Shown here: positions 17,848-50,938 of the stretch, one piece after another
Layout of the letters: every line of letters starts with the position of its first letter
How positions within the stretch are numbered: the stretch's first letter is position 1
Assembly (NCBI GenBank): GCA_014728225.1
Contig: WJLX01000003.1
Span: 14,815 to 78,814 of the forward strand
Direction: 5' to 3'
Length of the DNA: 64,000 nucleotides
Origin: Candidatus Coatesbacteria bacterium
GTDB taxonomy: Bacteria; RBG-13-66-14
Notes under the pieces: generated by a model
Database searches by the model: none
What the model was told of the DNA's origin: nothing
The model's input: only the letters and a program-made list of their open reading frames with translations
Program-made: the position numbers and the translations under genes

Positions 17848-18396
17848 GGGAGCATCACAGGAGTTGAACATCAGCTGTTGCAGTTGGGTTCTTCCAGCGG
17901 CGTGAACGGGTCCGTCAACCCGCCAGCGACGCGGCGGGCAATGTGGCGGGGCGGAGCGGATCGCGGGAGCGGCGCGCCGAGGGACGTCAAAAGGCGAGGG
18001 TCGCGGCAAGCCGTTCAAGCGTCGTCCCCGGGGTGCCGCAACGCGCCGCCGCCGGAAAAAACGCGGCGAGACAGCCTGTCTGTTGCGCCTCGGTGTCCCG
18101 ACCGTCCGAGCCGCCGCTCGCCGGGCCGCGCTGGACCCGACCAGCTACACCGCTACGCCGACGGCCGGCGGGTCTATAAGAAACTGTAAATCAACGGCTT
18201 CCACCACGGGGCCTCAATGACGACAAGACCCCGGTCGATGGCCGGCGACGGCAAACAGCCGAGCAGAGCTTCGGCCTCTTCATCCCTGAAAGATCGTTCC
18301 GCTTCAACCCTCGAGACGCCGATAACACGCTATCCATTCTCAGGAGCAGACTTCGCGCTTGGTCATAGCTCGGTCATAGTTAGGTGATAATCCCCC
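17848..18396 (+). mobile_element. Degenerate, internally deleted IS1595-family element (miniature, non-autonomous)
   Basis: Aligns with 50272..50938. Encodes a zinc-ribbon/HTH N-terminal fragment and a frameshifted C-terminal fragment (...YADGRRVYKKL*INGFHH...ERSFRFNPRDADNTLSIL). Right end GGTGATAATCCCCC. Inserted about 30 bp from the tRNA-Asn 3' end. Confidence 0.6.
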
Positions 18397-18426
18397 GAAA
18401 AAAACGGGACCCCCGCGGGGGTCCCG

Positions 18427-18501
18427 TGGCTCCTCGGGCCGGACTCGAACCAGCAACCAATCGGTTAACAGCCGATTGCTCTACCATTGAGCTACCGAGG
18501 A
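18427..18501 (-). tRNA. tRNA-Asn (anticodon GTT)
   Basis: Minus-strand sequence TCCTCGG-TA-GCTC-AATGGTA-GAGC-A-ATCGG-CTGTTAA-CCGAT-TGGTT-GCTGG-TTCGAGT-CCGGC-CCGAGGA-G-CCA folds as a cloverleaf. Anticodon loop CTGTTAA gives GUU. CCA is encoded. Confidence 0.85.
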
Positions 18502-18581
18502 TCGTGAATTTCGCCGCCGTCGGTGACGACGGAGGAGTATTGTGCCAGAGGGCGGCGAAGCTGTCAAGGACGGGGGAGGCT

Positions 18582-19697
18582 TTACAAGGTCTCGGCCAGC
18601 TTGCCGAACAGTTTGCGTTGCTCGACGCTGAGCTTCCTGGGCAGGTGGACCTTGAGCCGGACGTAGTGGTCGCCGCGGCGGCCGCTGCGCTCGTTGTGGA
18701 TACCCTTGTTCTTCAGCCGCAGCTTGGCGCCGGGCTGGGTGCCGGCGGGGACCTTGGCGCAGACCTCGCCGTGGAGGGTGGCGGTGCAGACCTCGCCGCC
18801 GAGGACGGCGGTGGTCAGCGGGATCTCCTCGGTGGTGTAGACGTCGACACCCCGACGCTCGAAGCGTGGATGGGGCTTGACGCGGACCTTGATATAGAGG
18901 TCGCCGGCGGGACCGCCGTTGCGGCCGGGCCGGCCCCGTCCGGGAAGGCGGATCTTCTGGTCCTCGCTGATACCGGCGGGGATCTTGACCGCCACGGCGG
19001 TGTCCGAGGGCGCCCGGCCGGTGCCGTTGCATTTGGGGCAGGTCTCGGTGGGCACGACGCCGCGACCGAGGCAGCGTGGGCAGGTGCGGCTGATGCCGAA
19101 ACCGCCCTGGCCCGAGGTCAAGCGGCCGCTGCCGTTGCACTGAGGGCAGTCGCCCCAGTCGGTGCCGGGTTTGCCGCCGGAGCCCTTGCACATGGGACAC
19201 TGGCCGCCCGCGGGGACCTTGACGCGGATCTTGCCCCCCCTGGCCGCCAGCTCGAAGTCCACGCTGACGGTCAGGGTCAGGTCCTCGCCGGTGGTGCTGC
19301 GCGGTTGGGCGCGGTTTCGTCCGGCGGAGCGACCGAAGCCGAACATCTCGCCCAGCAGATCGCCCAGTCCGCCGGCGCCGAAGCCGCCCCGGCCGCCGAA
19401 GTCCCTGGTCCAGGTGAAGCCGCCGTGGCCCTGTCCGCCCCGGGCTCCGCCGGAACCGCCCGTCCGCGGGTCCCAATTCCCGCCGTAACGGCGGATGGTG
19501 TCGTACTGCTTGCGTTTCTCCGGGTCCTTGAGGACGTCGTAGGCCTCGCCGACCTCCTTGAAGCGGCGCTCGGCGTCGGCGTCGCCCTTGTTACGGTCGG
19601 GATGGTACTTCTTGGCCAGCTCGCGGTAGGCGCGCTTGACGTCCTCCGTCGAGGCGTCCTCGGGAATGCCCAGAATCTGGTAGTAGTCCTTACTCAT
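18582..19697 (-). CDS. dnaJ: Molecular chaperone DnaJ
   Basis: J domain ([12 protein letters not shown]...[16 protein letters not shown]), G/F-rich linker, four CxxCxGxG zinc-finger repeats, and a C-terminal domain. The true start is MSKDYY at 19697; the track N-terminal extension is spurious. Confidence 0.9.
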
Positions 19698-20256
19698 CGG
19701 CGTGGGTCGGGTTTTCGTCGCTTTGCTGGGCGATGACCACCTTGGCCGGGCGCAGCAACACATCGCCCAGGCGGTAGCCGTCGGCGAAGACGGCGGTCAC
19801 GGTACCCGGCTCCGCGTCGGTCTGGTCGTCGGTGGCCAGGCATTCGTGAAGCTGGGGATCGAAGTCCTCGCCGAGAGGTTTCAGCCGTTCGACACCCAGG
19901 TTGGCCAGAGCGTGGTCCAGCTTGTCGATGACGGCGTGAAGGCCCGCGCGGAAGGTCTCGGCGTCTTGGGCCTCGTGCTCGACGGCGCGGTGCAGATCGT
20001 CGACGGCGGGCAGGACGCTTTCCAGCAGCTCGCGGAAGGCGCTCAGCCGTTGCTGGCGATCGCGGTCGGCGCGGCGCTTGCGGTAGTTGTCGAACTCGGC
20101 GGCCAGGCGCAGGTAGCGGTCGTTAAGCTCGGCCAACTTCTCGGCCAGCTCGGCGGCTTCGGCGGAGCCTGCGGTTTCCTGATCGGCGCCGCTTTGTTCC
20201 ACCGACTCGTCGGCGGCGGCCGCGGGACGCTCTTCGTTGGTGCGTTCATCGCTCAT
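19690..20256 (-). CDS. grpE: Nucleotide exchange factor GrpE
   Basis: Coiled-coil [25 protein letters not shown] followed by a GrpE beta-domain. GGAGAGG RBS. Overlaps the dnaJ start by 8 bp. The track ORF 19690..20787 fuses it with upstream sequence. Confidence 0.85.
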
Positions 20257-20264
20257 CGCTGGGG

Positions 20265-20741
20265 TTACCTCTCCAGTAAGGGTTTCAGGTCGTCGTCCAG
20301 GCGCTTGAGGGCCAGCCGGGCCTGGCCGAGGTTGCCGTCGCGGTCGAGGCCGAGGCCGACGACGTAGTGTTCGGCCAGGTGATGGATCAACAGCCGGGCG
20401 CTGGAGGTTTCGATGATCAACTGCTGGACGTCGCCGGTGCCCGCTTCGTCGCTGGCCCGGCGGGCGACGCGCAGGGCCTCGACGAAGGCGTCGGCGGCGG
20501 TGTCGGGGCGGAAGCCCCGCGCCTCCGTCCAGGCGCCGACCATGATCCCGCTGTCCTCGAACAGGGCGGCGGCGAAACCGCCCCGGACGCTCTTGACGCT
20601 GTGACGCAGTATTTGTGCGAGCCGTTCGTCGATGGCTGCCTCCGGGGGACAGATTGACGGTACGACGGTGGCAGGTCTGCCTAATCGGCACACCCGGGCG
20701 GCGTATCCGGCCCCAACGGGGCGCCCCATTTTTATGTGCAA
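20265..20741 (-). CDS. Roadblock/LC7 (MglB-like) domain protein
   Basis: ...DSGIMVGAWTEARGF...IIETSSARLLIHHLAEHYVVGLGLDRDGNLGQARLAL matches the Roadblock/LC7 fold pattern. Exact start uncertain. Confidence 0.5.
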   Translation of the reverse strand: MHIKMGRPVGAGYAARVCRLGRPATVVPSICPPEAAIDERLAQILRHSVKSVRGGFAAALFEDSGIMVGAWTEARGFRPDTAADAFVEALRVARRASDEAGTGDVQQLIIETSSARLLIHHLAEHYVVGLGLDRDGNLGQARLALKRLDDDLKPLLER

Positions 20742-22357
20742 GAATCGTGCCGAACTGGTCGATCCGCTGGGGCGGGTTGCAGAACACGGCCGCCGAGGCG
20801 TCGCCCGAAGGCCCGGTCGTGGCTGATGTAGAGCAGGCTGCCCTCGTAGGCGTCCAGGGCCTTCTCCAGGGCCTCGATGCTCTTCAAGTCCAGGTGGGCG
20901 GTGGGCTCGTCGAGGAGCAGCAGATTGGCCCCGCCGAGGCAGATCAGCGCCAGAAACAGCCGGGCCCGCTCACCCCCGGAGAGTTCGCTGACCGGGGTGT
21001 GGATGCTCTCACCGGTGAACAGCAGGCGGGCCAGCAGGTGCCGGATCTCCCGCCGCTCGGCCGTCGTTCTAGCGCGGACGGTCTGCCAGACCGTGCCGTC
21101 GGTGGGCAGGCCGAGGGTCCGCTGATCGGCGTGGAAGGCCTGGACATTGGCGCCCAGGCCGCACTCGCCGCCGGTGGGCTGGAGCTCGCCGGTCAGCAGG
21201 CGCAGCAGGGTGCTCTTGCCGCTGCCGTTGGGACCGGCGAGGCGCAGCCGGCGGCCCCGGTAGAGGGTGAAGTCCAGACCGGCGAAGAGTTCGGGGCCGC
21301 CGGGGTGGGCGAAGCGCAGGTCGCGGGCGTAGGCCGCGACCTCGCCCGAGCGGGCCGCCGGACCCAGGGGCGGGCGGATGTGCAGGGTGTAGGACTTGGG
21401 CGGGGTCAAGCGTTCCTGTTCGATCTCGGCGATGCGGCGCTGGACGACCTTGACCGTCTTGCTCAGCTTGGCGGCCTTGCGGTCGTAGTACATCGAGCCG
21501 CGGCGGTTGGCGTGAGCCGTGCCGGCGAAGCCGCCGCCCTGGCCCTCGATGGTGCGCACGATGCCCAGGCGGCGGTTCATCCCCGCCAGGAGCTTCCGCC
21601 GCTCGCGCTTGGCCTGGTGGAAGTCCTCCCAGGCGGCGGCCAGCTCGGCGTCCCGTCGCTCGCGGTAGGCGCTGTAGCCACCGTGGTAGCGCCGCAGTCC
21701 GCCGTCTTCCAGCTCCAGGGTTTCGTCGGCCACGGTGTCGAGGAAGTCCCGATCGTGGCTGACCACGATGAAGGCTGCGTCGAGTTCGGCCAGCAGGGCT
21801 TCGGCCTGGCGCAGGCCCTCGAGGTCGAGGTGGTTGGTCGGTTCATCGAGCAGCAACAGGTCGGGTTCGGCGGCCAGCAGGACGGCCAGGTCGAAACGGG
21901 CCAGCTCTCCGCCGGAGAGCTCCAGCGCCGGGGCGTCGAGGCGCTTCTCGGGCAGACCCAGCCGCCCGGCCAGGCGGATCAGCCGCTCGGCGCGCTCATA
22001 ACCCCGACGGTTGACCAGTTCGTCGACGGCGGCGGTGTCGCCCTCCAGACCGCGCAGCCATAAACGGCCCAAGCCGGGTTGCAGGCGCTCGAGGCCGCGG
22101 ATCAGCAGCCGGCGATCGTCGGGCGCTTCCTCGGCGAAGGCCCCCTGTTCCAGCAGGGCGATCCGCACGTCGGCGGCCCGATGGATGGTGCCGGCGTCGG
22201 GTTCCAGGCGCTCGCTGATAATTTTGAGTAGGGTCGATTTGCCGCCGCCGTTCTCGCCGATCAAGGCCAGGTGGTCCCGGCGGCCGACCTCCAGCTCCAG
22301 GTCGTCGAGCACGAGACGGTGGCCGAAGCTCTTGGATATCCCTTGCAGTTTCAGCAT
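20732..22357 (-). CDS. ABC-F family ATPase (two ABC domains, no transmembrane domain)
   Basis: Two Walker A motifs (GENGGGKST, GPNGSGKST), two LSGGE signatures and Walker B motifs (LLLLDEP), with a linker between the ABC domains. The true start MLKLQGISKSF is at 22357 with an AAGGAG RBS; the track ORF to 22618 is over-extended. Confidence 0.85.
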   Translation of the reverse strand: MLKLQGISKSFGHRLVLDDLELEVGRRDHLALIGENGGGKSTLLKIISERLEPDAGTIHRAADVRIALLEQGAFAEEAPDDRRLLIRGLERLQPGLGRLWLRGLEGDTAAVDELVNRRGYERAERLIRLAGRLGLPEKRLDAPALELSGGELARFDLAVLLAAEPDLLLLDEPTNHLDLEGLRQAEALLAELDAAFIVVSHDRDFLDTVADETLELEDGGLRRYHGGYSAYRERRDAELAAAWEDFHQAKRERRKLLAGMNRRLGIVRTIEGQGGGFAGTAHANRRGSMYYDRKAAKLSKTVKVVQRRIAEIEQERLTPPKSYTLHIRPPLGPAARSGEVAAYARDLRFAHPGGPELFAGLDFTLYRGRRLRLAGPNGSGKSTLLRLLTGELQPTGGECGLGANVQAFHADQRTLGLPTDGTVWQTVRARTTAERREIRHLLARLLFTGESIHTPVSELSGGERARLFLALICLGGANLLLLDEPTAHLDLKSIEALEKALDAYEGSLLYISHDRAFGRRLGGRVLQPAPADRPVRHDSCT

Positions 22358-22927
22358 CCGCACTCCTTTCTCCTTTTCCGGGGTTGCGCTGAGCGCCGGG
22401 CTCCCCCCGGGGCCGTCACAGTTATTGCAGGCCGGCCGACCCGGCGGGGCCGGGTCGGCGGCGCAATAACCTGCGCCGGCCCCTGCGGTTTTTTTGTTTA
22501 CCACCCCATGCCGCATCGTCGGCGCCGGGATGGAAAAAAGCCGTCGGTGCGCGTGGCGCGGACCGACGGATACCCATCCCGTTGCTGCTCGATTGTGGTT
22601 GAAGCTCGCGCAGGCCAACCCGCCCGCTGGTTTACGGGCGGTGGATGCGGTGGGTGGCCTGGTGGTTTTGGGTCGGCCCGTTACAGCGACCCCTCATCCA
22701 GCCCACCCTCCGTCGGTTGGGCTACGCGTTGAACATGTAGGGCGGCTCCCGTTGGGGTTTTGTTACTTTTCCGTGGCGACGTCTCCGCGGCGACTTCGTT
22801 GGTGCGCGTCGGGGTTGGGGTGTCGCGAACGGCTGATCTTGATGTGGACAATATAGCAGGAAGCCGGAGGTATGGCAAGGGGGCGGTGGATTGCCGCTGT
22901 GCGGAATAAAGATGGGGATCGTCTACC

Positions 22928-23646
22928 GTGTTCGGACCGCTACCTGTCTGTAACCTGCTGTTAACATCCGGGATGGGCTGTGATATTCTGCCACGAAAAG
23001 GCGATCAACAAGTGGCGGAAAACCGAGCAACCGACCGGCCCAGTTGTTGCCCAAAATGTAACCATAGAACGCACTATAAGTTGGCCGACGGCAGATGTAA
23101 ATGCAAGAATTACGGAAAGAATTATGCCCATCGACCAAGATATGCAAAGCTATCTTGCAAACCTATCTCAAGAGAAGCAAAAAGAGATAGCTCGCTTATT
23201 ATGGCTGCGCGTTCCGACGGCCGCCGCGGCCAGGGCGGTCGGCGTATCCGCTAAAACAGCAGCCAAAGGTGCAATCGACTTACAATCGACTTACAATCGA
23301 CTTACAATCGACCAAGGGAGCGCCGCGCCGCCCCTCGCCAGGCCGCGCTCGACCCGACCGTCTACCCCGCTATGCCGACGGCCGGCGGGCCTGGACGAAA
23401 CTGTCGCTCAACGGTTTACACCACAAGCGGATCAAGCATGACAAGACACGGGTTGACGGCAAGCAACGGCCTCGAGAGCTCCCGGGGCTACGCCAAACGA
23501 CGGCTAAAGGCCGCTCACGGCGGCTTAAAGGCAACTTCAGGCGCTGTATCAGAGAAGGGTCGTTCCGCTTCAAGCATCGTGACGACGAAAACGCGCTCGA
23601 CTACCCGCAGGATGCACTGCTCAATTGGTCCGCTCAGGTTACATGA
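22928..23646 (+). mobile_element. Low-GC IS1595-family transposase remnant (frameshifted N-terminal zinc ribbon/HTH plus C-terminal DDE tail); boundaries approximate
   Basis: CPKCNHRTHYKLADGRCKCKNYGKNY zinc ribbon, then frameshift, then LRVPTAAAARAVGVSAKTA HTH, then 11-bp tandem repeats, then YADGRRAWTKLSLNGLHHKRI...FRFKHRDDENALDYPQDALLNW. GC content is markedly lower than surrounding genes. Confidence 0.6.
23273..23312. repeat. Tandem repeat, about 3.5 copies of the 11-bp unit ATCGACTTACA
   Basis: CAATCGACTTACAATCGACTTACAATCGACTTACAATCGACC sits at the junction between the N- and C-terminal transposase fragments. Confidence 0.7.
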
Positions 23647-23683
23647 TGCCTAAGGATTATACTCGGCCTTTAGGGAGGTAACG

Positions 23684-24265
23684 GTGCTGAGTGTTTTCGA
23701 GATCGCGGCCCTGGCGGTGGCGCTGGCGATGGACGCCCTGGCGGTGGCCGTCGCCGCCGGGGTGACCCTGCGGCGGGTCGATTGCCGCCAGACCTTCCGC
23801 CTGGGCTGGCATTTTGGTTTCTTCCAGGCCCTGATGACCATCGTCGGCTGGGCCGTCGGGCTGGCCGTCTACCGCCTGATCGCCGCCCTCGACCACTGGG
23901 TGGCTTTTGGCTTGCTGTTGCTGATCGGCGGCAAGATGATCGTCGAGTCCCGGCGCGGCGGCGCGGCCGACGGAGAGCGTTGGGATTATGAACCAACCCG
24001 GGGCTGGTCCCTGGTGCTGTTGTCGCTGGCCACCAGCATCGACGCCCTGGCGGCGGGCCTGAGTCTGTCGCTGCTCGGGGTGAGTATCTGGCTGCCGGCG
24101 CTGGTCATCGGGCTCGTCGCCGGTCTGTTCACCGTCGGGGGCCTTCACCTGGGGGCGCTGATCGGCCGGAAGACAGATCTGGGCCGCTGGGCCGAACTGG
24201 CCGGCGGCATCGTGCTGGTCTTGATCGGGGTCTGGGTGCTCTATCGGCACGGGGTGTTCTGCTGA
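23684..24265 (+). CDS. mntP: Manganese efflux pump MntP (DUF204 family)
   Basis: Six TM segments with two DUF204 half-repeats (ALAMDALAVAVAAG... / ATSIDALAAGLSLS). AGGGAGG RBS and GTG start at 23684. Confidence 0.75.
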   Translation: MLSVFEIAALAVALAMDALAVAVAAGVTLRRVDCRQTFRLGWHFGFFQALMTIVGWAVGLAVYRLIAALDHWVAFGLLLLIGGKMIVESRRGGAADGERWDYEPTRGWSLVLLSLATSIDALAAGLSLSLLGVSIWLPALVIGLVAGLFTVGGLHLGALIGRKTDLGRWAELAGGIVLVLIGVWVLYRHGVFC

Positions 24266-24821
24266 TGTTTATCACGGAGGGCCATCCACCGGGCCGGCAT
24301 GCTTCTTGCATTCCGCGGGCCTTCCTTCCCGGAAGGCCCGCGGGCAACAAGCCCGCCGGCCCTCTATGACTCGTCGCTGCCCCCACCGCTGGTCGCCGTA
24401 TGGAGACGTTGCGGGGAGGCGTTGCGGGATAGCGGCTTGAGGACAAGCAGGGAGGCATCTCGCCGCTTCTGGACCATAGCGCCGGGAGTGGAGACCGTTG
24501 TTTCAAATCGCGGGGAGGGCTGCTGGGGGACGTCGTCGTCGTCGGTTTTACCGACGGCTTTCGACAGCGGGCGATTATCAGTTCTAACTGGTTGGTGTTG
24601 AGTGGTATAGGGCTAGATGCTCGCTGATGGGATCAGCAGTGCCGGCAGTCGAGCATACAGGTCCGGGTTGTTGGGTTCGGTTTGACGACATTGACGCCCC
24701 TCGAGCTCTGCCGCAACAACACAAATCAAGGGGCTTGACCGGTTTGCTTCCGGCTGCCTTTCTAGGAACGGATCATAGAACTGGATTGGCCCGTTGCCGT
24801 TACGTGATCCCATAAAGAGAA

Positions 24822-24845
24822 GGGCCGACGGCTGTCGGCCCGTAA
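24822..24845 (-). terminator. Putative intrinsic terminator of the phosphodiesterase gene
   Basis: GGGCCGAC-GGCT-GTCGGCCC hairpin about 30 nt 3' of the stop at 24870, followed on the minus strand by TTCTCTTTAT. Confidence 0.45.
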
Positions 24846-24869
24846 TCGTTCGTAGTAGTTGATTGCGGT

Positions 24870-27077: not shown

Positions 27078-27096
27078 CGTCTGCTCCCGATTGCTG

Positions 27097-29895: not shown

Positions 29896-30066
29896 GCGTT
29901 TACCCCGTTGACAGGTGAGGCCGCCACCGTCGACGGCGGCCGGTTTATCGCTGGACGATTAGTTCCCCGGTATTATACCGTATTTTTACCCTTTTTGTTT
30001 CCATCGCCGCCGCCGTCCGTCAACACGACCCACCCGCAGGTCCGGGCGGCCCGAGCCGCCGCGCCG

Positions 30067-30151
30067 CCGGAACCGGCACGGTTGTTGCATCTCGGCGCCC
30101 GTGACGGATACTGCTAACGGTCCGCCTCCGCAACAACCGTGCCGGTTCCGG
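30067..30151. repeat. Palindromic intergenic element, copy 3 (variant; extended palindrome about 30011..30218)
   Basis: Inner IRs CCGGAACCGGCACGGTTGTTGC ... GCAACAACCGTGCCGGTTCCGG, with a symmetric T/A change on both arms. Outer arms CCGCCGTCCGTCAACACGACCC / GGGTCGTGTTGACGGACGGCGG are unrelated to the other copies but still self-complementary. Confidence 0.8.
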
Positions 30152-30265
30152 CGGCGTGTTTCCCGGTCCGTGGTTGGTGAGGTGACGGGATTGCGGGGTC
30201 GTGTTGACGGACGGCGGGGTCGCTGGACCCCGCCGTGTTTAGCTGTTGTTCGGGCGTGCTGGGGA

Positions 30266-32583: not shown

Positions 32584-32620
32584 TTGATCTCCCGCGCCCC
32601 GCCGGGGCGCTCGTGGCTCT

Positions 32621-33978: not shown

Positions 33979-34066
33979 GGGTAAAAGTATAACAGAGTTG
34001 CCGGGTTATCGTCTTCGGGCGGGAGACCTTTGCCGAACACCCCGCACGCTCCACAGCCGCCGGCCC

Positions 34067-34150
34067 CCGGAACTGGCACGGTTTTTGCATCTCGGCGACC
34101 GTTAGCACGGCTGTAACGGTCCGCCTCCGCAAAAACCGTGCCAGTTCCGG
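34067..34150. repeat. Palindromic intergenic element, copy 4 (extended palindrome about 34017..34212)
   Basis: IRs CCGGAACTGGCACGGTTTTTGC / GCAAAAACCGTGCCAGTTCCGG with a symmetric C-to-T/G-to-A change. Outer arms GGGAGACCTTTGCCGAA / TCGCGCAAAGGTCTCCC. Lies in the divergent rluB-crcB intergenic region. Confidence 0.8.
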
Positions 34151-39060: not shown

Positions 39061-39229
39061 GGCACCTCATCCTCGGCTGGCGGACATTTTGAACAGTGTA
39101 GCATCGCCGCCGGCCCGCGGCAACCCCCGTTCACAGGCTTCGATCACTCCGCTTACTCGACACCGGCACCCACGTCGGCCCCTGGAAAAACAGCCCTCGC
39201 CAACCGCGACGAGGACCGCCGCCCTGCGG

Positions 39230-39313
39230 CCGGAACTGGCACGTTTTTTGCAGCTCCTCACCCGCACGGCCGACGGTAACCTTACGCTATCGCAAAAAAC
39301 GTGCCAGTTCCGG
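39230..39313. repeat. Palindromic intergenic element, copy 5 (divergent core; outer IRs 39179..39357)
   Basis: IRs CCGGAACTGGCACGTTTTTTGC / GCAAAAAACGTGCCAGTTCCGG with a different core. Perfect outer IR CCCCTGGAAAAACAGCC / GGCTGTTTTTCCAGGGG. Confidence 0.8.
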
Positions 39314-39381
39314 CCGCGCGGGTCCGCCGGGGTGGTGCAAAGGCTGTTTTTCCAGGGGAAGTGGAGCCGCCGCACAATCGG

Positions 39382-40230: not shown

Positions 40231-40416
40231 CCCTGTCCTCCGCTTGAGTTTTTCCTCTCCCAGTTTAGTCCATCGGCCGTGTCTTGGCCAGGATAACCCG
40301 CGTCGGCGATGGGACGATTGAAACCGGCCGGTCTATCGGATAAAATGAGGGCGTATCATGGACGACGATGACGCGGTCCGGGTGTTTTCCGCCGGCCGGC
40401 ATAACGGAGGTTGTCG

Positions 40417-41853: not shown

Positions 41854-41867
41854 CCCGAAAGGCAACC

Positions 41868-43169
41868 TTGACCAAACCCGTACTGGCCCAGCTCGTCCGT
41901 CAGGATTTCGACAGCCTCTGGGAAAACGAAACCCTGGATACCGAGGCCGGGGTCGCCGAGTTGATCCTGGCCCAGTCGATCGAAGGTCACGCCCACACCG
42001 GCGCCGGCAGCTTCCATAAACGCCGTTACCCCGAACTGACCACCCACCAGGTGGTCGAGCTGCTCGGCTGGCCGGTGCTCGAATGCCGCCGCGCCCGCCA
42101 GGCCCTGATCGACGAGGTCTTCGAGTGGGTCGAGGCCTACGCCGATAAGGATGAGCGCACCAGTCTGGTCGACGCCGCCGGTCATCCCCTGCTGCGGATC
42201 CCCTGGCTGGCCAACCGCCGCGTCGAACCCCTCGAGGTGCTGCGCGGCATGTACGTCGGCGGTCTGCGGGACGACGAGGCCGTGCGCGCCGGAGCCGAAG
42301 AAAACTACGGCGTGGTCATCGGCGGCGGCCGCTGCCACGTCGTCGACACCCGGGTGATGGAGGAGCTCGGTGAAACCGCCGACTCCCTGGCCCACGAGGC
42401 CCACGACGCCGACGAGCTGGACCGCTACCGCGACAGCGGGATGATCGTCTCCCCCGACAAGATCGAAGCCGCCGACATCGACCAGGGACCCTACGAGTTC
42501 TACTACATCCGCTACCGCATCGGTCCCGGCCACTCCGACGACGCCGCCATCGTCGGCGCCGGCTTGCTCTACGGCACCGACGCCGCCCTGGGCGCCTGGC
42601 TGACCGACGCCGTCGACACCCTGGAGAAATTCTCCCTCCACTTCACCGACCAGGACGGCGAGCTCTCCCGCCTGGTGGGCGAGCGGGTGCCCGAGGCCCG
42701 TATCCCCGACGACGACCTCCAGCTCTACGTCACCCTCTGCGCCATCGCCCTCGGCAAGGAGGAGAAGGTCCCCGATTCCAGCACCCGCCACCTGCTGGCC
42801 GTCGATGAGAAGACGGACCGCAGCCTGCTGCGCGCCCACCTCGATTTCATCGAAGGCGTCAAGGGACCCGACCAGTCCATGGCCCACGGCAAGACCACCA
42901 CCCACACATTCTACGCCTACCTCCTCCAGCGCCTGGCCGAGCTGCGCCGCCGACCCAGCGTCGCCCCCCGGACCAAAACCGCCGGCCTGCTCAGCACCGA
43001 CTTCGCCGTCGCCGGCGCCGACGTCGAGCCCCGGGAGCTGGTCGAGCTGTTCAACAATCCCGACGTCTCGCTGGTCATCGTCACCGGCACCGACGGTCAC
43101 CCCAAGGGTTACATCAAACCCGCCGATCTGCTGCGCCTGGTCCACGACCCCCCCGCCGAGGGCGAATAG
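41868..43169 (+). CDS. Hypothetical protein, co-transcribed with the zinc-ribbon membrane protein; possible C-terminal CBS-like motif
   Basis: 14-bp gap after the upstream gene. No family motif apart from a CBS-like VSLVIVTGTDGHPKGYIKPADLLRLV at the C-terminus. Confidence 0.45.
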   Translation: MTKPVLAQLVRQDFDSLWENETLDTEAGVAELILAQSIEGHAHTGAGSFHKRRYPELTTHQVVELLGWPVLECRRARQALIDEVFEWVEAYADKDERTSLVDAAGHPLLRIPWLANRRVEPLEVLRGMYVGGLRDDEAVRAGAEENYGVVIGGGRCHVVDTRVMEELGETADSLAHEAHDADELDRYRDSGMIVSPDKIEAADIDQGPYEFYYIRYRIGPGHSDDAAIVGAGLLYGTDAALGAWLTDAVDTLEKFSLHFTDQDGELSRLVGERVPEARIPDDDLQLYVTLCAIALGKEEKVPDSSTRHLLAVDEKTDRSLLRAHLDFIEGVKGPDQSMAHGKTTTHTFYAYLLQRLAELRRRPSVAPRTKTAGLLSTDFAVAGADVEPRELVELFNNPDVSLVIVTGTDGHPKGYIKPADLLRLVHDPPAEGE

Positions 43170-43283
43170 GCCCCGCGGCTTTCCCGCTCCGACCAAACCC
43201 GTCGCCGGGGCGCAAAAACGCCGCTCCGGGAGACCGTTGAAACCCCTGCGGCGCTGATCACCCGCACCGGATAACCACGCCCG

Positions 43284-43367
43284 CCGGAACCGGCACGGTT
43301 TTTGCATCTCGGCAACCGTTGGAGTAAAGATAACGGTTCGCCTCCGCAAAAACCGTGCCGGTTCCGG
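43284..43367. repeat. Palindromic intergenic element, copy 6
   Basis: Canonical IRs. Core shows a compensatory A/T pair (GGCAACCGTT ... AACGGTTCGCC). Outer arms GGGAGACCGTTGAAACCCCT / AGGGGTTTCAACGGTCTCCC. Confidence 0.85.
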
Positions 43368-43574
43368 CGGGCAGGTTGCTGGGTCGTTGTCGGGAGGGGT
43401 TTCAACGGTCTCCCGGAGGGTGTGTGAAGCCCGGTGCGAGGCGGATTAACAACCGCGCAGGCTGGGCCGCTATTCCAGACTAGTCGCCGATGGCGGGTTT
43501 GAAGCCCCCGATGCTGGGCGATATGGGAAAACAGCGGCCCGCGGGCCGCTGTTTACTGTTGTGCACGATCGAGG

Positions 43575-44345
43575 TTACTCGAGGGGTTCGACGAGGACGT
43601 TGTCGAATGAGACCCCGGGCTGGCGGTAGCACATCAGGCCGATCTGGCCGTTGGGCAGTTCATCCCACTCTTCGCCGCCGTTCCATTCGAGCACCAGGTT
43701 TTCCAGGTTGCCGTTGTAGACCTTGATCTCGTGGCCCCGGGCCTCGACGATGACTTTGAAGGTTTCGCCGACGGTGTAGCCCTGGCCGTCGTTGCGGACC
43801 AGCCAGTTGGAGACGGTGGGTCCGCGGCGGTCCAGGCGCCAGTAGGGTCCGCCGTATTCGTTGGACTGCATGATGAAGACACGGTAGTAGTAGCGGCCGC
43901 TGTCGCCGAAGTAGCTCAGCCGGAACATGACACCGACACCGTTGGGGTGTTCCGGGGTGATCTCTACACTGAAGCGGTAGTCGGTCCAGTTTTCGTCGCC
44001 GGCGGCCAGGACTGTGCCGTTCTGCCAGTAGGGATAGGGATCTTCGCTGCCGCCCCAGGCGTCGGCGTCCTGGTAGAGGGCCCCGTTTTTGACGTACCAG
44101 TTACCGGAGGGGCTGGTGTCGTCGAGGCCGTAGTCACGTTGGGTCCAGCCGTCGGGGAAGGAGCCTTCGTCGTCGTTGGCGAAGTCGTCGCTGAAGAGGG
44201 GTTCCGTCGTCTCGCTGGAGGTGGTGCCGTCGCAACCCGCCGCCGGCAGCAGGCCGCAGACCGTCAGGAGCGCGGCCAGCGTAGCCGCGAGTGCGGTGTT
44301 GCGGAGAAGTGACGGCGCACGTCGGCGATTAAGGGGAGTGCTCAT
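43575..44345 (-). CDS. Secreted lipoprotein with concanavalin-A-like/LamG (DUF1080-like) jelly-roll domain
   Basis: Lipobox LTVCG. Motif pattern LFSDDF...GW...W.V.NGAL...WTDY.F.VEI......GVMFR...YY.....KVYNG..........GQIGL.......FDNVLV matches DUF1080-type domains. Confidence 0.45.
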   Translation of the reverse strand: MSTPLNRRRAPSLLRNTALAATLAALLTVCGLLPAAGCDGTTSSETTEPLFSDDFANDDEGSFPDGWTQRDYGLDDTSPSGNWYVKNGALYQDADAWGGSEDPYPYWQNGTVLAAGDENWTDYRFSVEITPEHPNGVGVMFRLSYFGDSGRYYYRVFIMQSNEYGGPYWRLDRRGPTVSNWLVRNDGQGYTVGETFKVIVEARGHEIKVYNGNLENLVLEWNGGEEWDELPNGQIGLMCYRQPGVSFDNVLVEPLE

Positions 44346-44764
44346 CTCGGGCGCCCTTTCGGTGGTTCGGCGGGGAAACGGGAACCGGAAGCCGCACAGC
44401 GGCGTATCTTCCCAATTCCCCTTTTATGGGAGTATAGCAAACGGGTCGTCCGTGGTAAACCGTCAGCCGTCGGCTCACTCGGGGCGGTGCATAATGAGCG
44501 CCCGGCGTCATCAAGCTTGTCAATCTGACGTAAAAGCCCTGTAAAGACAGGTGTTTACGAAAGTCAACACTCGATCCGTGGTCAGTTGTATGAAAAAGTT
44601 AACGCTCAACCAGCCATCGGCGGGACACGGAAAAAAAGTGATCGTTGCAACACAATGAATCTGGACGACCTACGAAATGACTAGTGACGATTATCACTGG
44701 TTGGCACGATTGTTGCAGTGTTATAACCGTGGGTCGAACACATCAACATCGGAGGTTTCAGGGT

Positions 44765-45586
44765 ATGAGGTACAGCAATCGAGACAACAAGAGCTTGAAA
44801 ACATATCTCGATCAGGCCGGTAATCACCGCGTGCTGTCACGCACGGAACTGATCGAGTTGATGGAAGTTGCCGAGAACACACGCAACGCAATTATTTCCA
44901 ACAACCTGCGTTTGGTCATCTCCATCGCCAAACGCTACATGGATCGCGGCCTGCCGCTCCAGGACCTGATCCAGGAAGGCAACATCGGTCTGATCCGGGC
45001 CGCCGAGGGTTACGATCCCGACAAGGGCACCTGTTTCAGCACCTACGCCACCTGGTGGATCCGCCAGGCCATCGAGCGCGCCATCGTCAACAAGCGGCGC
45101 ACCGTGCGCATCCCCTTCGACAAGGACCGCCAGATCAAGAAGATCATCCGGGCCCGCGAGGAGCTGATCGCCGAAAGCGGCGACGAACCCGACGCCAAGC
45201 AGATCGCCCAGCGGTTGCGCATGCCCGTGGAAAAGGTCGAGAAGCTGCTGCGCCTCTCCCACGGCACCTTGTCCCTGGACAGCACCTACGGCAACTACAC
45301 CAACCCGCTGATGGACACCATCAGCGACGACGAGTTGATGGCTCCCGACGACATCTGGCACGATTACCTGCTCAAAACCGCCGTCCGGCGGGCCATGGAC
45401 GAACTGACCGAACGCGAGAAGCGGGTGTTGCAGTACCGCTTCGGTTTCCTCGACGGCGAGAAGCACTCCCTGGCCGATACCGGCAATCGCCTGGGTTACT
45501 CCACGGAGACCATCCGCCAGGTCGAGCTGACAGCCCTGCGCAAGCTGCGCTCCACTCATCACGAGCTGGCCGAGCTGCTCAATTGA
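44765..45586 (+). CDS. RNA polymerase sigma factor, sigma-70 family (regions 2-4; alternative sigma)
   Basis: GGAGG RBS. Region 2 NLRLVISIAKRY...DLIQEGNIGLIRAAEGYDP..G.FSTYATWWIRQAI, and region 4 HTH near the C-terminus (SLADTGNRLGYSTETIRQVELTALRKLR). 273 aa. Confidence 0.8.
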   Translation: MRYSNRDNKSLKTYLDQAGNHRVLSRTELIELMEVAENTRNAIISNNLRLVISIAKRYMDRGLPLQDLIQEGNIGLIRAAEGYDPDKGTCFSTYATWWIRQAIERAIVNKRRTVRIPFDKDRQIKKIIRAREELIAESGDEPDAKQIAQRLRMPVEKVEKLLRLSHGTLSLDSTYGNYTNPLMDTISDDELMAPDDIWHDYLLKTAVRRAMDELTEREKRVLQYRFGFLDGEKHSLADTGNRLGYSTETIRQVELTALRKLRSTHHELAELLN

Positions 45587-45645
45587 GCTCACCCTCACCC
45601 ATATACGTGGAACGGACCCTCGAGGGTCCGTTCCTTGTTTGAAGA

Positions 45646-46179
45646 TTAAATCTCGTCGGCGCCGGAGCCCGCCGGTTGTTCCTCCCGGGCCCGTTCCAGG
45701 AGTTCGTCGGTGGTGTAGATCGGCGCCTCCATCCGCAGCGCCAGGGCGGTGGCGTCGGAGGGTCGGCAGTCGATGGCCCGCAGTTCGTCGTCGGCCCGCA
45801 GTTCCAGGCGGGCGTAAAAGGCCTCTTCGTGGACGTCGTCGATTATCACCCGCTCCAACCCGGCGTTCAGGGTCAGGATGATCCTGACCAACAGGTCGTG
45901 GGTCAGGGGGCGGCCGAAGTCATAATCGTCCAGGGCGATGGCGATGGAGACGGCCTCGGCCTGACCGATGCCCATGGCCAGGTGGCGGTCCCCGTCGCGT
46001 TCGGTAAAGACCAACAGATAGTCGCCCGTTTCGGGATCCTGCCACACGGCCCGGACGTCGAGACGGATGAGGTCGGCCTCGTCGTAGCCGTGATCGGCGG
46101 TCTGGGCCGCTGCGCCGAGCGCCGTCGTCAAGACCACCAGCGTCCAAAGCAGGGGTCCGGGGCGCGGGATGCCGTTCAC
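45646..46179 (-). CDS. Bifunctional nuclease (BFN/DUF151) domain protein with signal peptide
   Basis: LLVFTERDGDRHLAMGIGQAEAVSIAIAL...RPLTHDLL...IDCRPSDATALALRMEAPIY matches the BFN domain. Confidence 0.65.
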   Translation of the reverse strand: MNGIPRPGPLLWTLVVLTTALGAAAQTADHGYDEADLIRLDVRAVWQDPETGDYLLVFTERDGDRHLAMGIGQAEAVSIAIALDDYDFGRPLTHDLLVRIILTLNAGLERVIIDDVHEEAFYARLELRADDELRAIDCRPSDATALALRMEAPIYTTDELLERAREEQPAGSGADEI

Positions 46180-46327
46180 CTTACCTCCCGGGGTGCGTCG
46201 TTACGCAACCATCCTATAACCTTTTTTCCCCGCGGGCAAACTTTTCTCTTCTCCAAACAGGCGGGCGGCCTTGTCAATCAACCGTCGAAGACGTAAACTA
46301 CTATTAGGATTACAGCGGGAGGAAACC

Positions 46328-47143
46328 ATGCGACGTCTAGTGTATTTGTGTTTGAGCGCTGGTCTGGCGCTGGCCCTGTCGGCCTGCTCCTCAAACGGCG
46401 ACGAGACCGACTCCGCCGTCGACGGCGGTACCGCGGAAGTGGAGGCCGTCGAGCTGGAACCGCCGGCGGAACCCCCGGAGCCCGTTTGGGGCGGTGAGAC
46501 GACCTATCTGCGTTCCGGCGACGGCACGCCCGTGGCCGCCGAGTGGCTCAGTGTGGAAGGCGCCGAGCCCCGGGGCACCGTGATCCTCATCCATATGCTG
46601 GGGCAGGAGCGCAGCGATTGGTCTCCCCTCGTCCAGCCCCTGGTGGAGAGCGGCTTCGATGTCGTGGGCGTCGATCTGCGCGGCCACGGACAATCGAAAC
46701 TCAACGGCAGCTACGCCGACTTCACCCAGGAACAGTGGCGGGCGGCCCGCGCCGACGTCCGCGCCGCCCTGGATTATGCCATTCCCGACAAGCCCGATCC
46801 CTACTTCGTTTGCGGGGCCAGCATCGGCGCCAACCTGGCCTTTCTCGAGGTCGCCGGCGACAACCGATCCGCCGGGGTGATCCTGCTGAGCCCCGGTAAG
46901 GATTACCGCGGGGTCCGGCCCGCCGAGGGCCTCGAGGAATACGACGACCGCCCCGCCCTGCTGGTCGCCGCCGAGGACGACGCCTTCAGCGCCCAGACCG
47001 TCCGCGAGCTGGCCGCCGATTTGACCAACGCCCGCGTCGAGGTCTATCCCGACGGCGGTCATGGCACCCGGCTGTTGTCCAGCCGACCCGAGGTCCGCGA
47101 GCTGATCATCGACTGGCTCGTCCAGCGGCTGGCGGAGCGTTAG
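46328..47143 (+). CDS. Alpha/beta-hydrolase-fold lipoprotein
   Basis: Lipobox LALSAC. GxSxG-like nucleophile elbow VCGASIGAN and HGQS. Confidence 0.6.
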   Translation: MRRLVYLCLSAGLALALSACSSNGDETDSAVDGGTAEVEAVELEPPAEPPEPVWGGETTYLRSGDGTPVAAEWLSVEGAEPRGTVILIHMLGQERSDWSPLVQPLVESGFDVVGVDLRGHGQSKLNGSYADFTQEQWRAARADVRAALDYAIPDKPDPYFVCGASIGANLAFLEVAGDNRSAGVILLSPGKDYRGVRPAEGLEEYDDRPALLVAAEDDAFSAQTVRELAADLTNARVEVYPDGGHGTRLLSSRPEVRELIIDWLVQRLAER

Positions 47144-48004
47144 TTGGAAGTCGCAGCGCTCCAGCGTTTGCAGGTCCTCTACCGCTGTCCCGTCTGCGGT
47201 CGGCCCGGTCACGGCAACCTCCTCGGCGGCGCCGTCCATTGCACCCACTGCGGCGCGGCCTTCGTCAGCTTCTCCCGCGGCGAGGGCGCCTTCGTCGTCC
47301 TCGGCAACCTCAACTCCGGCGAGGCCGTGCTCAAGGCCCGCCGGATCGTCAAGGACTCCGGCTATCGGGGTCGCCTGCGGATCGAATCCGAGGAGCGCCT
47401 CCTGGTTCCCTGGAGGTTGACGGTCACCGAGCGCCTGATCGACGACGGTGAACCCCGCCGCGAGGAGACGGCGACCCTGCGAGTGGTACACGATCCGGAG
47501 CGTCTGCTGCTGCCCGAGCTGGATCCCCTTACGCTCCGGCTGGAGGGGGTCCAGGCCGCCGGATTGACCCTGGAACCCCTCGAGGAGGAGCGGTTGTCGA
47601 CGGGCGACCTGTTGTTACCAGCCGAATCCCGGCAACAGCCCGGAGCGCAGTCGCCCGAATCGCTAGACCCCGGCATCGTTTCCCTACGCAGCGTCCTGCT
47701 CTACTATCCTTTCTGGCGCATCGTCTTCACCGCCGGCGACGACGGTCCCGATTGGCCCCTGGTGCTCGACGGCCTCGCCGGGCACCTGGTCGCGGGTGAT
47801 CCGCCCCGGGGACAACGCACGATCCCCGCTTTCTGGATCGGCGTTCCCGCCCTGGGAGCCTACGCCCTCGGTTGTCTGGTCAATCTGTTCACCGGCGGCC
47901 TGTCCGGCTTCGAATGGCTGAGTCTCGTCGGCGCCCTGGCCGGCGTCGGCGGCCTGTTCTACCTCAAGGGGCGACGGGCCGAGCAGAACCTGCGACGGGA
48001 TTAG
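47144..48004 (+). CDS. Hypothetical protein with N-terminal zinc ribbon and C-terminal TM segments
   Basis: TTG start abutting the upstream stop. CPVCG...CTHCG zinc ribbon. Two C-terminal hydrophobic helices. Confidence 0.4.
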   Translation: MEVAALQRLQVLYRCPVCGRPGHGNLLGGAVHCTHCGAAFVSFSRGEGAFVVLGNLNSGEAVLKARRIVKDSGYRGRLRIESEERLLVPWRLTVTERLIDDGEPRREETATLRVVHDPERLLLPELDPLTLRLEGVQAAGLTLEPLEEERLSTGDLLLPAESRQQPGAQSPESLDPGIVSLRSVLLYYPFWRIVFTAGDDGPDWPLVLDGLAGHLVAGDPPRGQRTIPAFWIGVPALGAYALGCLVNLFTGGLSGFEWLSLVGALAGVGGLFYLKGRRAEQNLRRD

Positions 48005-48073
48005 TTGGGGTGGTCCGCCACGGTGGCCGACCTCTGAAAAACGGCCGGCGACGACTGCTGGACCCCGCCCGCG

Positions 48074-48157
48074 CCGAAACCGGCACGGTTTTTGCATCTC
48101 GGCGACCGTTGGAGCTGGTATAACGGTCGGCCTCCGCAAAAACCGTGCCGGTTTCGG
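48074..48157. repeat. Palindromic intergenic element, copy 7
   Basis: IRs CCGAAACCGGCACGGTTTTTGC / GCAAAAACCGTGCCGGTTTCGG with a symmetric G-to-A/C-to-T change. Outer arms GACCTCTGAAAAACGGCC / GGCCGTTTTTCAGAGGTC. Confidence 0.85.
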
Positions 48158-48286
48158 CGCGGGCTATCCGGCTCTTGCGCCGGGTCGGCAGGGCCGTTTT
48201 TCAGAGGTCGGCTTGCGGCGTCGGAATAATAGAACGGACGGGTCCGGCGGACCCGTCCGTTGCGTTCAGGTGTTTCAGCGATTTGA

Positions 48287-50104
48287 TCAGCGATCGACGA
48301 CCAGGCGGCTGGTGGCGTTGACCGCGTCGGTCCGCAGTCGGATCAGGTAGAGACCGGCGGGCAGTGGGGCGGCGTCGAGGCCGATGACGTGGCGTCCGGC
48401 GGCCAGGTTGCCGCTGTGCAGGATGGTGATGCGGCGTCCGGCCAGGTCGTAGAGGGCGAGTTCGGCGGGGCCGCTGTCGGCCAGCTCGACGGTCACGGCG
48501 CTCCAGCCGCTGCTGGGGCTGGGATTGACGCCGACGATCCGGGTCACTGTGTCGCTGATACCGCCGAGGTCGCATTCGACGGGGCCGAAGCTGGTGCTCT
48601 GGCCGCCGGGTTCGATTACCTCGAGTCGGTAGGCCGTCGGACCGGCGGCTTCGCGGTCGAGGAAACGGCCGCGGGCGGGCTCGAGGGGGCTCTCGTTGAG
48701 TTTGATGCCTGCGCCGTCGGCGACGAAGGTGGTGTCGTCGATGCGGTAGAGGTTGCAGACGGCGTCGTCGGCTTCAACGTCCCAGGAGATCAGGGCGCCC
48801 TCGGCGGTGGGTTCGGCGGTCAGGTCGACGAGTAGGACCTCGGTGTTGTCACTGGGGAGCATGGTCGGATCGCCGATCAGGGTCATGCCGTAGAACCAGC
48901 CGCGGGCGGTCGGCCGGTCGGCCCAGCCGTAGCCCTCGGCGACCAGGGCGAACCAGGTCTGGAAGGCCTCGCCCCAGGTGTCCCCGGCGGCGACCTCGGA
49001 GTAGAACTCATTGAAGAAGAGCATCGAGCCGGTCTTGGTCGAGCCGATGGTGAGCAGCCCCTGGCCGTCGTTATCCAGGACATAGACGGCGCCCATGTTG
49101 TTGTCGGTGGTGTAGCGGGCGTTGGAGCAGGCGAACAGGTTGTGGACCAGCCACTCGTGGTCGGTGGAGTTGACGTAGTAGTTGTTGACGGAGGGCCCGT
49201 CGTGGAAGGCGTGAATGGCCGGGCTGGAGTGGCAGCACATCAGGATGTGCTCGTACTGGTTGTCGTTGAGCCTGTTCTGATAGCCGGTGCCGTCGACGTT
49301 GGGCCAGACGTTCTGCTCGTTGTTGGCGTAGACCTGGGCCACGGCGGCGCTCCAGGAGTTGCCGGAGCTCTGCCAGTCGTGGTCCACGTAGGTCATCGAG
49401 CTGCGCGGCACCGTACAGGCGTCGTTGCGGTAGTCGATCATCCGCTCCAGCCAGGCGTTGACCAGGTCGGCTTCGCCGTTGAACATGGTGAGGTTGTGCG
49501 CCGGCAGGCGGCCGAGGTAGATGTCGGTTTCGATGTCGCCGGAGCCGGCCTCGTGGTAGTCGTAGATGCCGTCGGGGTTGGGCGCGCCGGAGGAGTCCTC
49601 GTTATCCTGCCAATCGCCGTTCAGGTCCGTCAGGAACAGGTCGCAGGGGAACTCCTCGTAGCCGATGTCGGGCCAGAAAACGCCCTGGAACCAGGCCGAG
49701 TCGTAGTCGCCGATCAGGATCAAACCGTCGAGGCCGTCGTTCTCCCACCAGTCGACGATCCAGCTCTTGAGAACCTCGGGGCTGGAGGGCACGCCGGAGG
49801 TGTAGGCGTTGACGCCGTAGCCCAGACCGGCCAACTGGTTGGCGTAGGTGGTGAAGCTGCTCTCGATCAAGGGGTAGAGATCCTCGTTGACCAGGATGAA
49901 CAGCTCGTCGCCGGGGCCGTTGCCGGCGGAGTACACCGGGACCGGTTCCGGGCTGGAAGCCGGGTAGGGTGTCCGGCGGGCCAGGTATTCGGCGTACGTC
50001 TCCAGGGGTTCGGCGCCGTCGAACAGCTGGGTGACGACGACCTCGCCGCTCTGGGCGAGCAGGACGGAGGCGAGAAGCAGCAGGATCAAGGCGCTTTTAC
50101 ACAT
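48287..50104 (-). CDS. Secreted peptidase C25 (gingipain)-like protein with T9SS-type C-terminal sorting domain
   Basis: Signal peptide. CCHSS ... LFACSNARY spaced like the gingipain His/Cys dyad (GHGS / ACVNGDF). C-terminal ~85 aa (GVNPSPSSGWSAVTVELADSGPAELALYDLAGRRI...AGLYLIRL) match the same CTD pattern as the FG-GAP protein. Confidence 0.55.
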   Translation of the reverse strand: MCKSALILLLLASVLLAQSGEVVVTQLFDGAEPLETYAEYLARRTPYPASSPEPVPVYSAGNGPGDELFILVNEDLYPLIESSFTTYANQLAGLGYGVNAYTSGVPSSPEVLKSWIVDWWENDGLDGLILIGDYDSAWFQGVFWPDIGYEEFPCDLFLTDLNGDWQDNEDSSGAPNPDGIYDYHEAGSGDIETDIYLGRLPAHNLTMFNGEADLVNAWLERMIDYRNDACTVPRSSMTYVDHDWQSSGNSWSAAVAQVYANNEQNVWPNVDGTGYQNRLNDNQYEHILMCCHSSPAIHAFHDGPSVNNYYVNSTDHEWLVHNLFACSNARYTTDNNMGAVYVLDNDGQGLLTIGSTKTGSMLFFNEFYSEVAAGDTWGEAFQTWFALVAEGYGWADRPTARGWFYGMTLIGDPTMLPSDNTEVLLVDLTAEPTAEGALISWDVEADDAVCNLYRIDDTTFVADGAGIKLNESPLEPARGRFLDREAAGPTAYRLEVIEPGGQSTSFGPVECDLGGISDTVTRIVGVNPSPSSGWSAVTVELADSGPAELALYDLAGRRITILHSGNLAAGRHVIGLDAAPLPAGLYLIRLRTDAVNATSRLVVDR

Positions 50105-50271
50105 CGGGTGTTCCTTTGCTGTTGGTCGGCCGATATTGCTGACGGTGATTTACCTTTCGGGCATATTAGCCCAGCACTTCTGGTGTGTCAAGGCGGGGGC
50201 AATAGCGAACACCGGCGGCCCCAATCCCGCCGTCCGGAACGGTTCCGGTGACAAGGAAGACGAAGGTTGTT

Positions 50272-50938
50272 GGGGATTAAGGAAGGGATCATCACAGGAG
50301 ATGAACATCAGCTATTGCAGTGGGGTTCTTTAGCGGTGTGAACGGGTCTGTCAGCCCGCCACCGACGAGGGGGGCAATGTGGCGGGGAAGAGCGGGACGG
50401 GGGAGCGGCACGTCAGGTGTCCAAGATGCAATTACCGCTGCGGCAAGCTGTTCAAGCGTCATCCCCGGGGGCGTCGCAACGCGCCGCCGTCGGCAAAACG
50501 CGGCGAGACAGCGCGTCTGTTCCGGCTCGGCGTCCCGACCGTCCGAGCCGCCGGGGATTTGGGCAGCCGGCGCAATACGGCATATCGCTACTAGAAGCTA
50601 ATCCGCCGGCGCCGCACCGCCGCTCGACAAGCCGCGCTGGACTCGATCGTCTACACCGACGGCTGTAAGGCCTATAAGCAACTGTCACTCAACGGCTTCC
50701 ACCACAAACGCATCGACAACCAACAGGATTTCGCCGATGGACGGACACATAGCAACGGGATCGAGAACTTCCGGGGCGACGCCAAGCGCCGCCTAAAAGC
50801 CACCTGGAGGATTCAGGCTTAACTTCAGACTCTTGATCACTGAAAGGACGTTCAGCTTCAGCCATCGAGACGGCGAAAACGTGCTAAACCACCTCGGGAG
50901 CATACTGCGCGCTTGTTCATAATCAGGTGATAATCCCC
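50272..50938 (+). mobile_element. Miniature, internally deleted IS1595-family element with terminal inverted repeats GGGGATTA ... TAATCCCC
   Basis: Encodes the zinc-ribbon/HTH N-terminus CPRCNYRCGKLFKRHPRGRRNAPPSAKRGETARLFRLGVPTVRAAGDLG. This is followed almost directly by the C-terminal ...YTDGCKAYKQLSLNGFHHKRIDNQQDFADGRTHSNGIENFRGDAKRRL..., then a frameshift, then ERTFSFSHRDGENVLNHLGSILRA. About 90 aa carrying the first catalytic D are missing. Confidence 0.7.

Follow-up and report, generated by a model that had tools for sequence, protein, structure and literature searches.

The elements described here find their closest described counterparts in the IS1595 family of insertion sequences (IS), in which ISAba36 and ISEc69 are the closest named members. 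As in that family, the transposase is of the DDE_Tnp_IS1595/NF033547 type with an apparent N-terminal zinc ribbon and a helix-turn-helix (HTH), the terminal inverted repeats (TIRs) are short and start with GGG, the target duplications are of 8 bp and the IS itself is small (~0.9 kb). In Haloquadratum walsbyi, a miniature inverted-repeat transposable element (MITE) associated with ISHwa6 (IS1595 family) is 165 bp long with a 25-bp inverted repeat and an 8-bp direct repeat, and IS-derived MITEs are thought to originate when an IS is internally deleted, with mobilisation supplied in trans (PMC3852290). MITEs and IS deletion derivatives are already well known, and IS/MITE biology is unchallenged by the copies reported here. 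The window, by which we mean the whole 64-kb stretch of Candidatus Coatesbacteria contig WJLX01000003.1 that was analysed, carries three copies, named c17, c22 and c50 by window position, which share one deletion junction (J1). We read them as fossil, non-autonomous internal-deletion derivatives of a small IS1595-family IS, with a single origin of the deletion, and give this account a probability of roughly two in three. The three copies are as follows:

17848-18394 (+): c17, a 547-bp deletion derivative with subfamily-1 ends GGGAGCATCAC...GGTGATAATCCC and J1 at 18125-18136
22915-23650 (+): c22, a 736-bp deletion derivative with subfamily-2 ends GGGATCGTCTACCGTGTTCGGACC...CAGGTTACATGATGCC and J1 at 23342-23353
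50285-50937 (+): c50, a 653-bp deletion derivative with subfamily-1 ends GGGATCATCAC...GGTGATAATCCC and J1 at 50631-50642

An earlier, sequence-only reading of this DNA had placed three or four remnants here. Three lie at about the coordinates it gave, and nhmmer with a profile built from related elements hits exactly three window sites (E 1e-128, 2e-72 and 2e-55); a fourth copy was not found in the window by tblastn, terminal-module blast or nhmmer. The three are mutually homologous at 72–82% identity in blastn comparisons against the whole window: c50 and c17 are 82% identical across 274 bp and 76–78% in two further blocks, c50 and c22 are 72% identical across 298 bp, and c17 and c22 are 78% identical across 148 bp. 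At this level of identity the copies must be old. Like the ISHwa6-associated MITE, they are non-autonomous derivatives that keep IS ends and 8-bp direct repeats; unlike it, they measure 547–736 bp against an 892-bp parent and still contain recognisable transposase codons, the form termed 'delta-IS'. Miniature elements are roughly <300–400 bp and without coding remnants, and the window copies (547, 653 and 736 bp) lie outside that range. Because 60–80% of the parent is retained, we describe them as internally deleted IS derivatives rather than miniatures.

The family assignment made from sequence alone holds in profile searches. The stitched translation of c50 matches PF12762 (DDE_Tnp_IS1595) at 36.4 bits (cut-off 27), over positions 74–137 of 153 only and hence in the C-terminal part of the domain; against NF033547 (NCBIfam IS1595) it matches positions 130–213 of 215 at 40.3 bits, under the cut-off of 75 because half of the domain is gone. 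The other two copies are placed in the family by their homology, at the DNA level, with c50 and with full-length elements. The zinc-ribbon profile PF12760 reaches E=0.2 on c22, in which a CPKC-x12-CKC motif is visible, and 19.5 bits (cut-off 25.4) on the full-length relative P0007. Protein searches with c50 returned four intact relatives (P0001, P0002, P0005 and P0007; 258–277 aa) together with many short open reading frames (ORFs) of metagenome-assembled genomes (MAGs). All four intact proteins score 145–164 bits against NF033547 (cut-off 75) and cover positions 1–153 of PF12762, and HTH_23 is above its cut-off in P0001. Full-length relatives differ from ISAba36 and ISEc69 in sharing only ~46% protein identity with them over residues 37–252. 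Their zinc-ribbon and HTH N-terminus resembles IS1 InsA (NF033558 positions 1–103, up to 44.5 bits), a resemblance that fits the relationship between IS1595 and IS1 reportedly published by Siguier et al. in 2009; unlike IS1, these proteins stay below the IS1 cut-off of 100 bits, have an IS1595-type catalytic domain and lack a frameshifted two-ORF organisation.

Two intact elements served as references, one of 892 bp at L050 1659-2550 (TIR GGGATAATCACCTA / TAGGTGATAATCCC) and one at L051 121-1010. The parent of the window copies is a ~890-bp IS1595-family IS with 11–14-bp TIRs of the form GGGAT(C/A)ATCAC and a transposase of ~260 aa comprising zinc ribbon, HTH and DDE domain. The nearest intact transposases, among the closest database proteins, are ~63–64% identical, and an autonomous master copy was found neither in the window, nor in ~15 kb of sister genome, nor among those proteins. 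Unlike ISAba36 and ISEc69, the window copies lack the first catalytic Asp and are dead: the D..D..E triad is incomplete in c17, c22 and c50 through deletion of this residue (EVDES, D111 of P0001), c17 additionally lacks the Glu, and stops and frameshifts interrupt the copies. Their ends are present while their transposase is non-functional, as in other non-autonomous derivatives.

The central observation is that c50, c17 and c22 carry the identical junction J1, which was mapped by tblastn against intact P0001 and by DNA alignment with intact elements. The junction motif GCCGCGCT[G/C]GAC reads GCC GCG CT(G/C) GAC, and at the protein level REAEL is fused straight to DSIVY. The single deletion architecture that had been proposed for all three copies is thereby confirmed, as is the loss of the first Asp. 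The missing segment amounts to P0001 residues E102–L166, that is 65 codons or 195 bp including EVDES, in place of the ~90 aa previously estimated. In the undeleted copy L001 a 9-bp direct repeat, CGAGCTGGA, stands at both J1 breakpoints. Slippage or illegitimate recombination between two copies of this repeat in a transposase gene would have removed the 195 bp with the first catalytic Asp. The deleted element, having kept both ends, could then have been inserted at AT-rich 8-bp intergenic targets by a full-length transposase acting in trans; all copies would afterwards have decayed where they had inserted, by private deletions as well as by frameshifts and base substitutions, and presumably encode nothing functional today.

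Termini and target-site duplications (TSDs) were derived by comparing ~30 copies for where similarity begins and stops. The family termini are GGGAT(C/A)ATCAC and its complement, flanked by 8-bp TSDs, and two end types occur, subfamily 1 (GGGATCATCAC...GGTGATAATCCC; c50 and c17) and subfamily 2 (GGGATCGTATACCGTGTTCGGACC...CAGGTTACATGATGCC). The termini of c50 are GGGATCATCAC / GTGATAATCCC. The sequence-only reading had given this copy the TIRs GGGGATTA/TAATCCCC and a length of ~667 bp; the left one, GGGGATTA, consists of flank and TSD, and the multi-copy comparison moves the left end 13 bp inward, which corrects the element to 653 bp (50285-50937). The end pair of c22, GGGATCGTCTACC...ACATGATGCC, is unlike the ends of c50 and c17, and the three copies are therefore not one uniform element. 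The 8-bp duplications whose presence had been put forward as a check were recovered to different degrees:

50277-50284 and 50938-50945: c50 TSD, left TTAAGGAA and right CTAAGGAA, matching at 7 of 8 positions
22907-22914 and 23651-23658: c22 TSD, left TAAAGATG and right TAAGGATT, matching at 6 of 8 positions
17837-17844 and 18396-18403: c17 TSD remnants, left CGAAACTA and right CGAAAAAA, degenerate and offset, with 3 nt (GCA) between the left remnant and c17

Perfect 8-bp TSDs flank ten related copies (L018, L026, L028, L029, L031, L033, L034, L047, L048 and L052), and several more match at 7/8. Two loci depart from the simple 8-bp pattern: L054/L053 2800-3530 is flanked by a ~26-bp direct duplication (AATGGAATACAATGGCGCTGTTTTTTT) and L051 97-1058 by one of ~22 bp.

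Each window copy has in addition been damaged in its own way, and the statement that all three retain the zinc-ribbon/HTH region, the second Asp (YTDG/YADG) and the Glu (NGIENF) stands only in part. In c50 the HTH survives, as do the second Asp (VYTDG) and the Glu (NGIENF); this copy has a private 42-bp deletion within the zinc ribbon and a reading frame broken by at least one stop codon and a frameshift. A different private deletion took the zinc-ribbon segment with CPxC from c17. Between CCGCCG repeats this copy lacks 66 bp of its HTH, private deletions of 32 bp and 25 bp have removed NGIENF, and an 11-bp duplication is present near its right end. The CPKC-x12-CKC codons of c22 are intact, alongside several frameshifts and an 11-bp tandem repeat in three copies at 23276-23308. 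The 'YADG' of c17 and c22 arises from a frame-shifting 7-bp insertion that the two have in common just 3' of J1. As the zinc-ribbon segments lost and kept in c17 and c50 are reciprocal, the ancestor of both must have carried J1 and been otherwise intact.

Whether the shared junction reflects one event or several turns on the characters that flank it. J1 also occurs in L052 and L054 of MAG GCA_054921935.1 (microbial mat, 67–68% G+C), which gives three J1 copies in the 64-kb window and two in this MAG at the loci covered. A metagenome scan with a DNA pattern of the J1 lineage gave six GC-rich matches that are due to chance, none of them homologous outside the pattern. In the 25 bp upstream of J1, c50, c22, L052 and L054 have derived substitutions in common (RRRRxAARQA against RERIAADREA), of which c17 keeps only the 3' part because its private HTH deletion took the rest. 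Inside the repeat, at the junction itself, four of the five J1 copies show GAG>GCG. A common origin of the junction segment is favoured because these flanking characters are shared by the J1 copies. They count, as does the 7-bp insertion shared by c17 and c22 downstream, against the rival we consider unlikely, namely that full-length insertions each lost the same 195 bp convergently through the bracketing 9-bp repeat CGAGCTGGA and that no non-autonomous element ever moved. Nor did this host lineage yield a full-length copy, another point against that rival.

Other observations favour convergence. The L001 breakpoints carry direct repeats of 9, 7 and 5 bp, and a second, 180-bp deletion class (J2/J3; junctions ELEN|VELD and ELEK|LELD) arises from a 15-bp imperfect repeat, CTGGAGAAGCTCGAG / TTGGAGAACGTCGAG, that overlaps the J1 repeat; J1, J2 and J3 are all in-frame. 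The region of the first Asp has demonstrably been deleted at least two times independently (195-bp J1 and 180-bp J2/J3), so at least two junction registers exist beside three other deletion classes, and because this direct-repeat hotspot yielded at least two independent deletions, a recurrent architecture is not in itself proof of amplification. Several further points weigh against a single amplified derivative. The analysis recovered just five J1 copies, the three window copies included, and their 72–84% identity gives no sign of a recent burst. A full-length element of the J1 lineage was found nowhere. By their 3' halves the J1 copies form no cluster, showing 75–81% identity to everything, and c50 finds its best 3' match in L009, a copy of the 180-bp class. 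Every J1 copy comes from a high-GC genome of the same host lineage, so some of the shared GC-raising substitutions could be parallel amelioration. The frameshifts, and the deletions that affect zinc ribbon, HTH and NGIENF, reflect independent decay after insertion, with private microhomology deletions in every copy. Moreover, c22, with its different ends and low-GC 5' half, shares J1 only within a mosaic. The TSDs of c22 and c17 are imperfect, and a TSD cannot tell whether deletion preceded or followed insertion.

Amplification of deletion derivatives is directly visible in related genomes. A scan of one genome per species with a 9-sequence alignment gave 49 loci, nearly all in two MAGs, CAZOOP01 (uncultured bacterium; >30) and WJMB01 (Candidatus Coatesbacteria Bin_537; ~13). 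One deletion class, class B, lacks P0001 residues ~72–143 and is present in CAZOOP01 as at least 13 complete copies with one junction, 85–94% identical (median 88%); it thus repeats one structure many times at unrelated loci. Since many of these copies also have perfect TSDs, deletion derivatives of this IS clade do amplify, which also speaks against convergent loss. Two more classes lack residues ~100–138 and ~45–89. The proposal that the window copies represent an amplified MITE-like derivative and not independent decay is accordingly upheld in its core, by the shared J1 and by the multiplication of clade derivatives with 8-bp TSDs, and has to be tempered by the extent of private decay, the differing ends of c22 and the deletion hotspot.

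Many of the related copies lie at contig ends. In c22 itself, three independent Logan assemblies of near-identical strains (L070, L071 and L072, position 1 = window ~23622) break within the last 29 bp of the element; related repeats thus fragment metagenome assemblies. Separately, a true MITE of ~190 bp with termini GGGATCATCAC...GTGATAATCCC and no transposase remnant is present in L031 (~2790-2990) and, at the same position, in L038; it is nested inside these two deletion derivatives, beside a threefold TAATACGGCTTG repeat.

Sister genomes provide a view of two of the three insertion sites. JGI and Logan contigs were found through the DnaJ gene adjoining c17 (97%-identical protein), and their DNA is 93–96% identical to the window; the DnaJ of the window is <50% identical to that of any named taxon. 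Exact-protein look-ups for two genes near c50, at 48287-50104 and 53294-54169, gave no record. The c17 site is empty in L061 and L062, where it reads GGCGGCGAAACTAAAACGGGA between flanks 94–96% identical to the window; the c17 TSD is degenerate, but the insertion is thus absent from these relatives. At the c22 site, L061 (3073-3808 against window 22907-23658; flanks ~93–94% identical) holds a different element of 712 bp, with subfamily-1 ends and in the opposite orientation. This element is a member of the 180-bp class whose identity to L009 of a Candidatus Coatesbacteria MAG is 86.6% along the whole element. Its TSD, TAAGGATT, is perfect and lies on the same 8 bp as the c22 target upstream of mntP, which suggests either a target hotspot or the replacement of one element by another, together with transfer between genomes. 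The sequence 'ELEKHMLDS' in the L061 element was considered as a fourth junction and rejected, the element being collinear with L009 and differing by point substitutions. Between these genomes, intergenic DNA has diverged far more than genes (window 17527-17848 is unaligned by megablast), so an element that inserted once they had split has had time to decay. Two features are mildly unusual: the deletion hotspot bracketed by repeats, and the single 8-bp target that two different elements have used in sister genomes.

The mosaic structure of c22 brings in a further rival, in which the deletion arose in one resident copy and spread into inserted full-length copies by ectopic recombination, without transposition. 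Mosaics are common (L030, L039 and L054 are chimeras of the two end types), and in c22 a low-GC 5' half of subfamily 2 is joined to a junction and 3' region that are GC-rich and resemble c17. As had been observed from the sequence, this copy is low in G+C (56% overall against 66.5% for the window; 51.5% in its 5' half), with a local minimum of 37–43% around 23095-23215. Gene conversion of this kind is improbable in our estimation: with only 72–82% identity overall the copies show no strong homogenisation, the J1 copy L052 has a perfect 8-bp TSD (AAATCTAG) in another genome at a locus unrelated to those of the window copies, and the c17 site is empty in sister genomes. Under the single-origin account, recombination between copies may instead have moved the junction region onto the second end type to give c22, a step for which the chimeras L030, L039 and L054 and the 7-bp insertion common to c17 and c22 argue.

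It is highly improbable that the short elements are functional, either as a truncated zinc-ribbon and HTH regulator of transposition or as regulatory insertions by tRNA-Asn, mntP and the btuB-like receptor. The in-frame nature of J1, J2 and J3, the 110–190-aa ORFs predicted by gene callers in many relatives and the end of c22 33 bp upstream of mntP could be taken in favour of such a role. All three window copies, on the other hand, contain stops and frameshifts, the zinc-ribbon or HTH regions have been deleted separately, the predicted ORFs of relatives vary in extent and frame, and in a sister genome one site is empty and another holds a different element. Rfam matches inside c17, c22 and c50 are likewise absent. 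A functional small protein or RNA was rejected on the stops, frameshifts, private deletions and lack of an Rfam family match.

A broader scenario, which we regard as unlikely, would have the imperfect repeats built into the transposase gene (CTGGAGAAGCTCGAG and TTGGAGAACGTCGAG, overlapping CGAGCTGGA), which bracket the first Asp, cause the IS to shed in-frame 180/195-bp segments repeatedly. The IS would then be a self-renewing source of end-competent non-autonomous derivatives that spread from one member of a microbial-mat community to another and re-use the same 8-bp targets, and the truncated zinc-ribbon/HTH protein might initially inhibit transposition. In an annotation, the three stretches should not appear as genes; the suitable label is IS1595-family deletion derivative, entered as a pseudogene or repeat region with ends and TSDs as corrected here. 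They offer an example, from an uncultured microbial-mat lineage, of non-autonomous elements arising from a small IS by microhomology deletion and persisting as fossils.

The three copies are intergenic and lie among housekeeping genes. The proximity of one copy to tRNA-Asn is as described earlier, and c22 ends 33 bp before mntP, while c50 is directly downstream of a btuB-like TonB-dependent receptor gene, itself preceded by a cobalamin riboswitch (71 bits). These neighbouring features are:

18404-18427: terminator hairpin of tRNA-Asn, between that gene and the right end of c17
18427-18501 (-): tRNA-Asn(GTT), 32 bp from the right end of c17, context outside the element
51014-52936 (-): TonB-dependent receptor gene
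53112-53295 (-): cobalamin riboswitch upstream of the receptor gene

Two further repeats were observed in the window. A palindromic intergenic repeat of ~86–95 bp with core CCGGCACGGTTTTTGC...GCAAAAACCGTGCCGG is present in at least nine window copies, 85–93% identical, and also in related genomes (L052 and L061); it is REP- or MITE-like and far commoner than the IS1595 remnants. Its window copies are at:

13488-13573
15128-15213
30065-30153
34057-34150
39213-39256
43274-43369
48067-48164
54241-54333
58489-58572

A second short repeat with hairpin-forming segments occurs at 8058-8120 and 17763-17826 (89% identical); the copy at 17763-17826 is immediately next to c17, and L062 has the repeat at its empty site.

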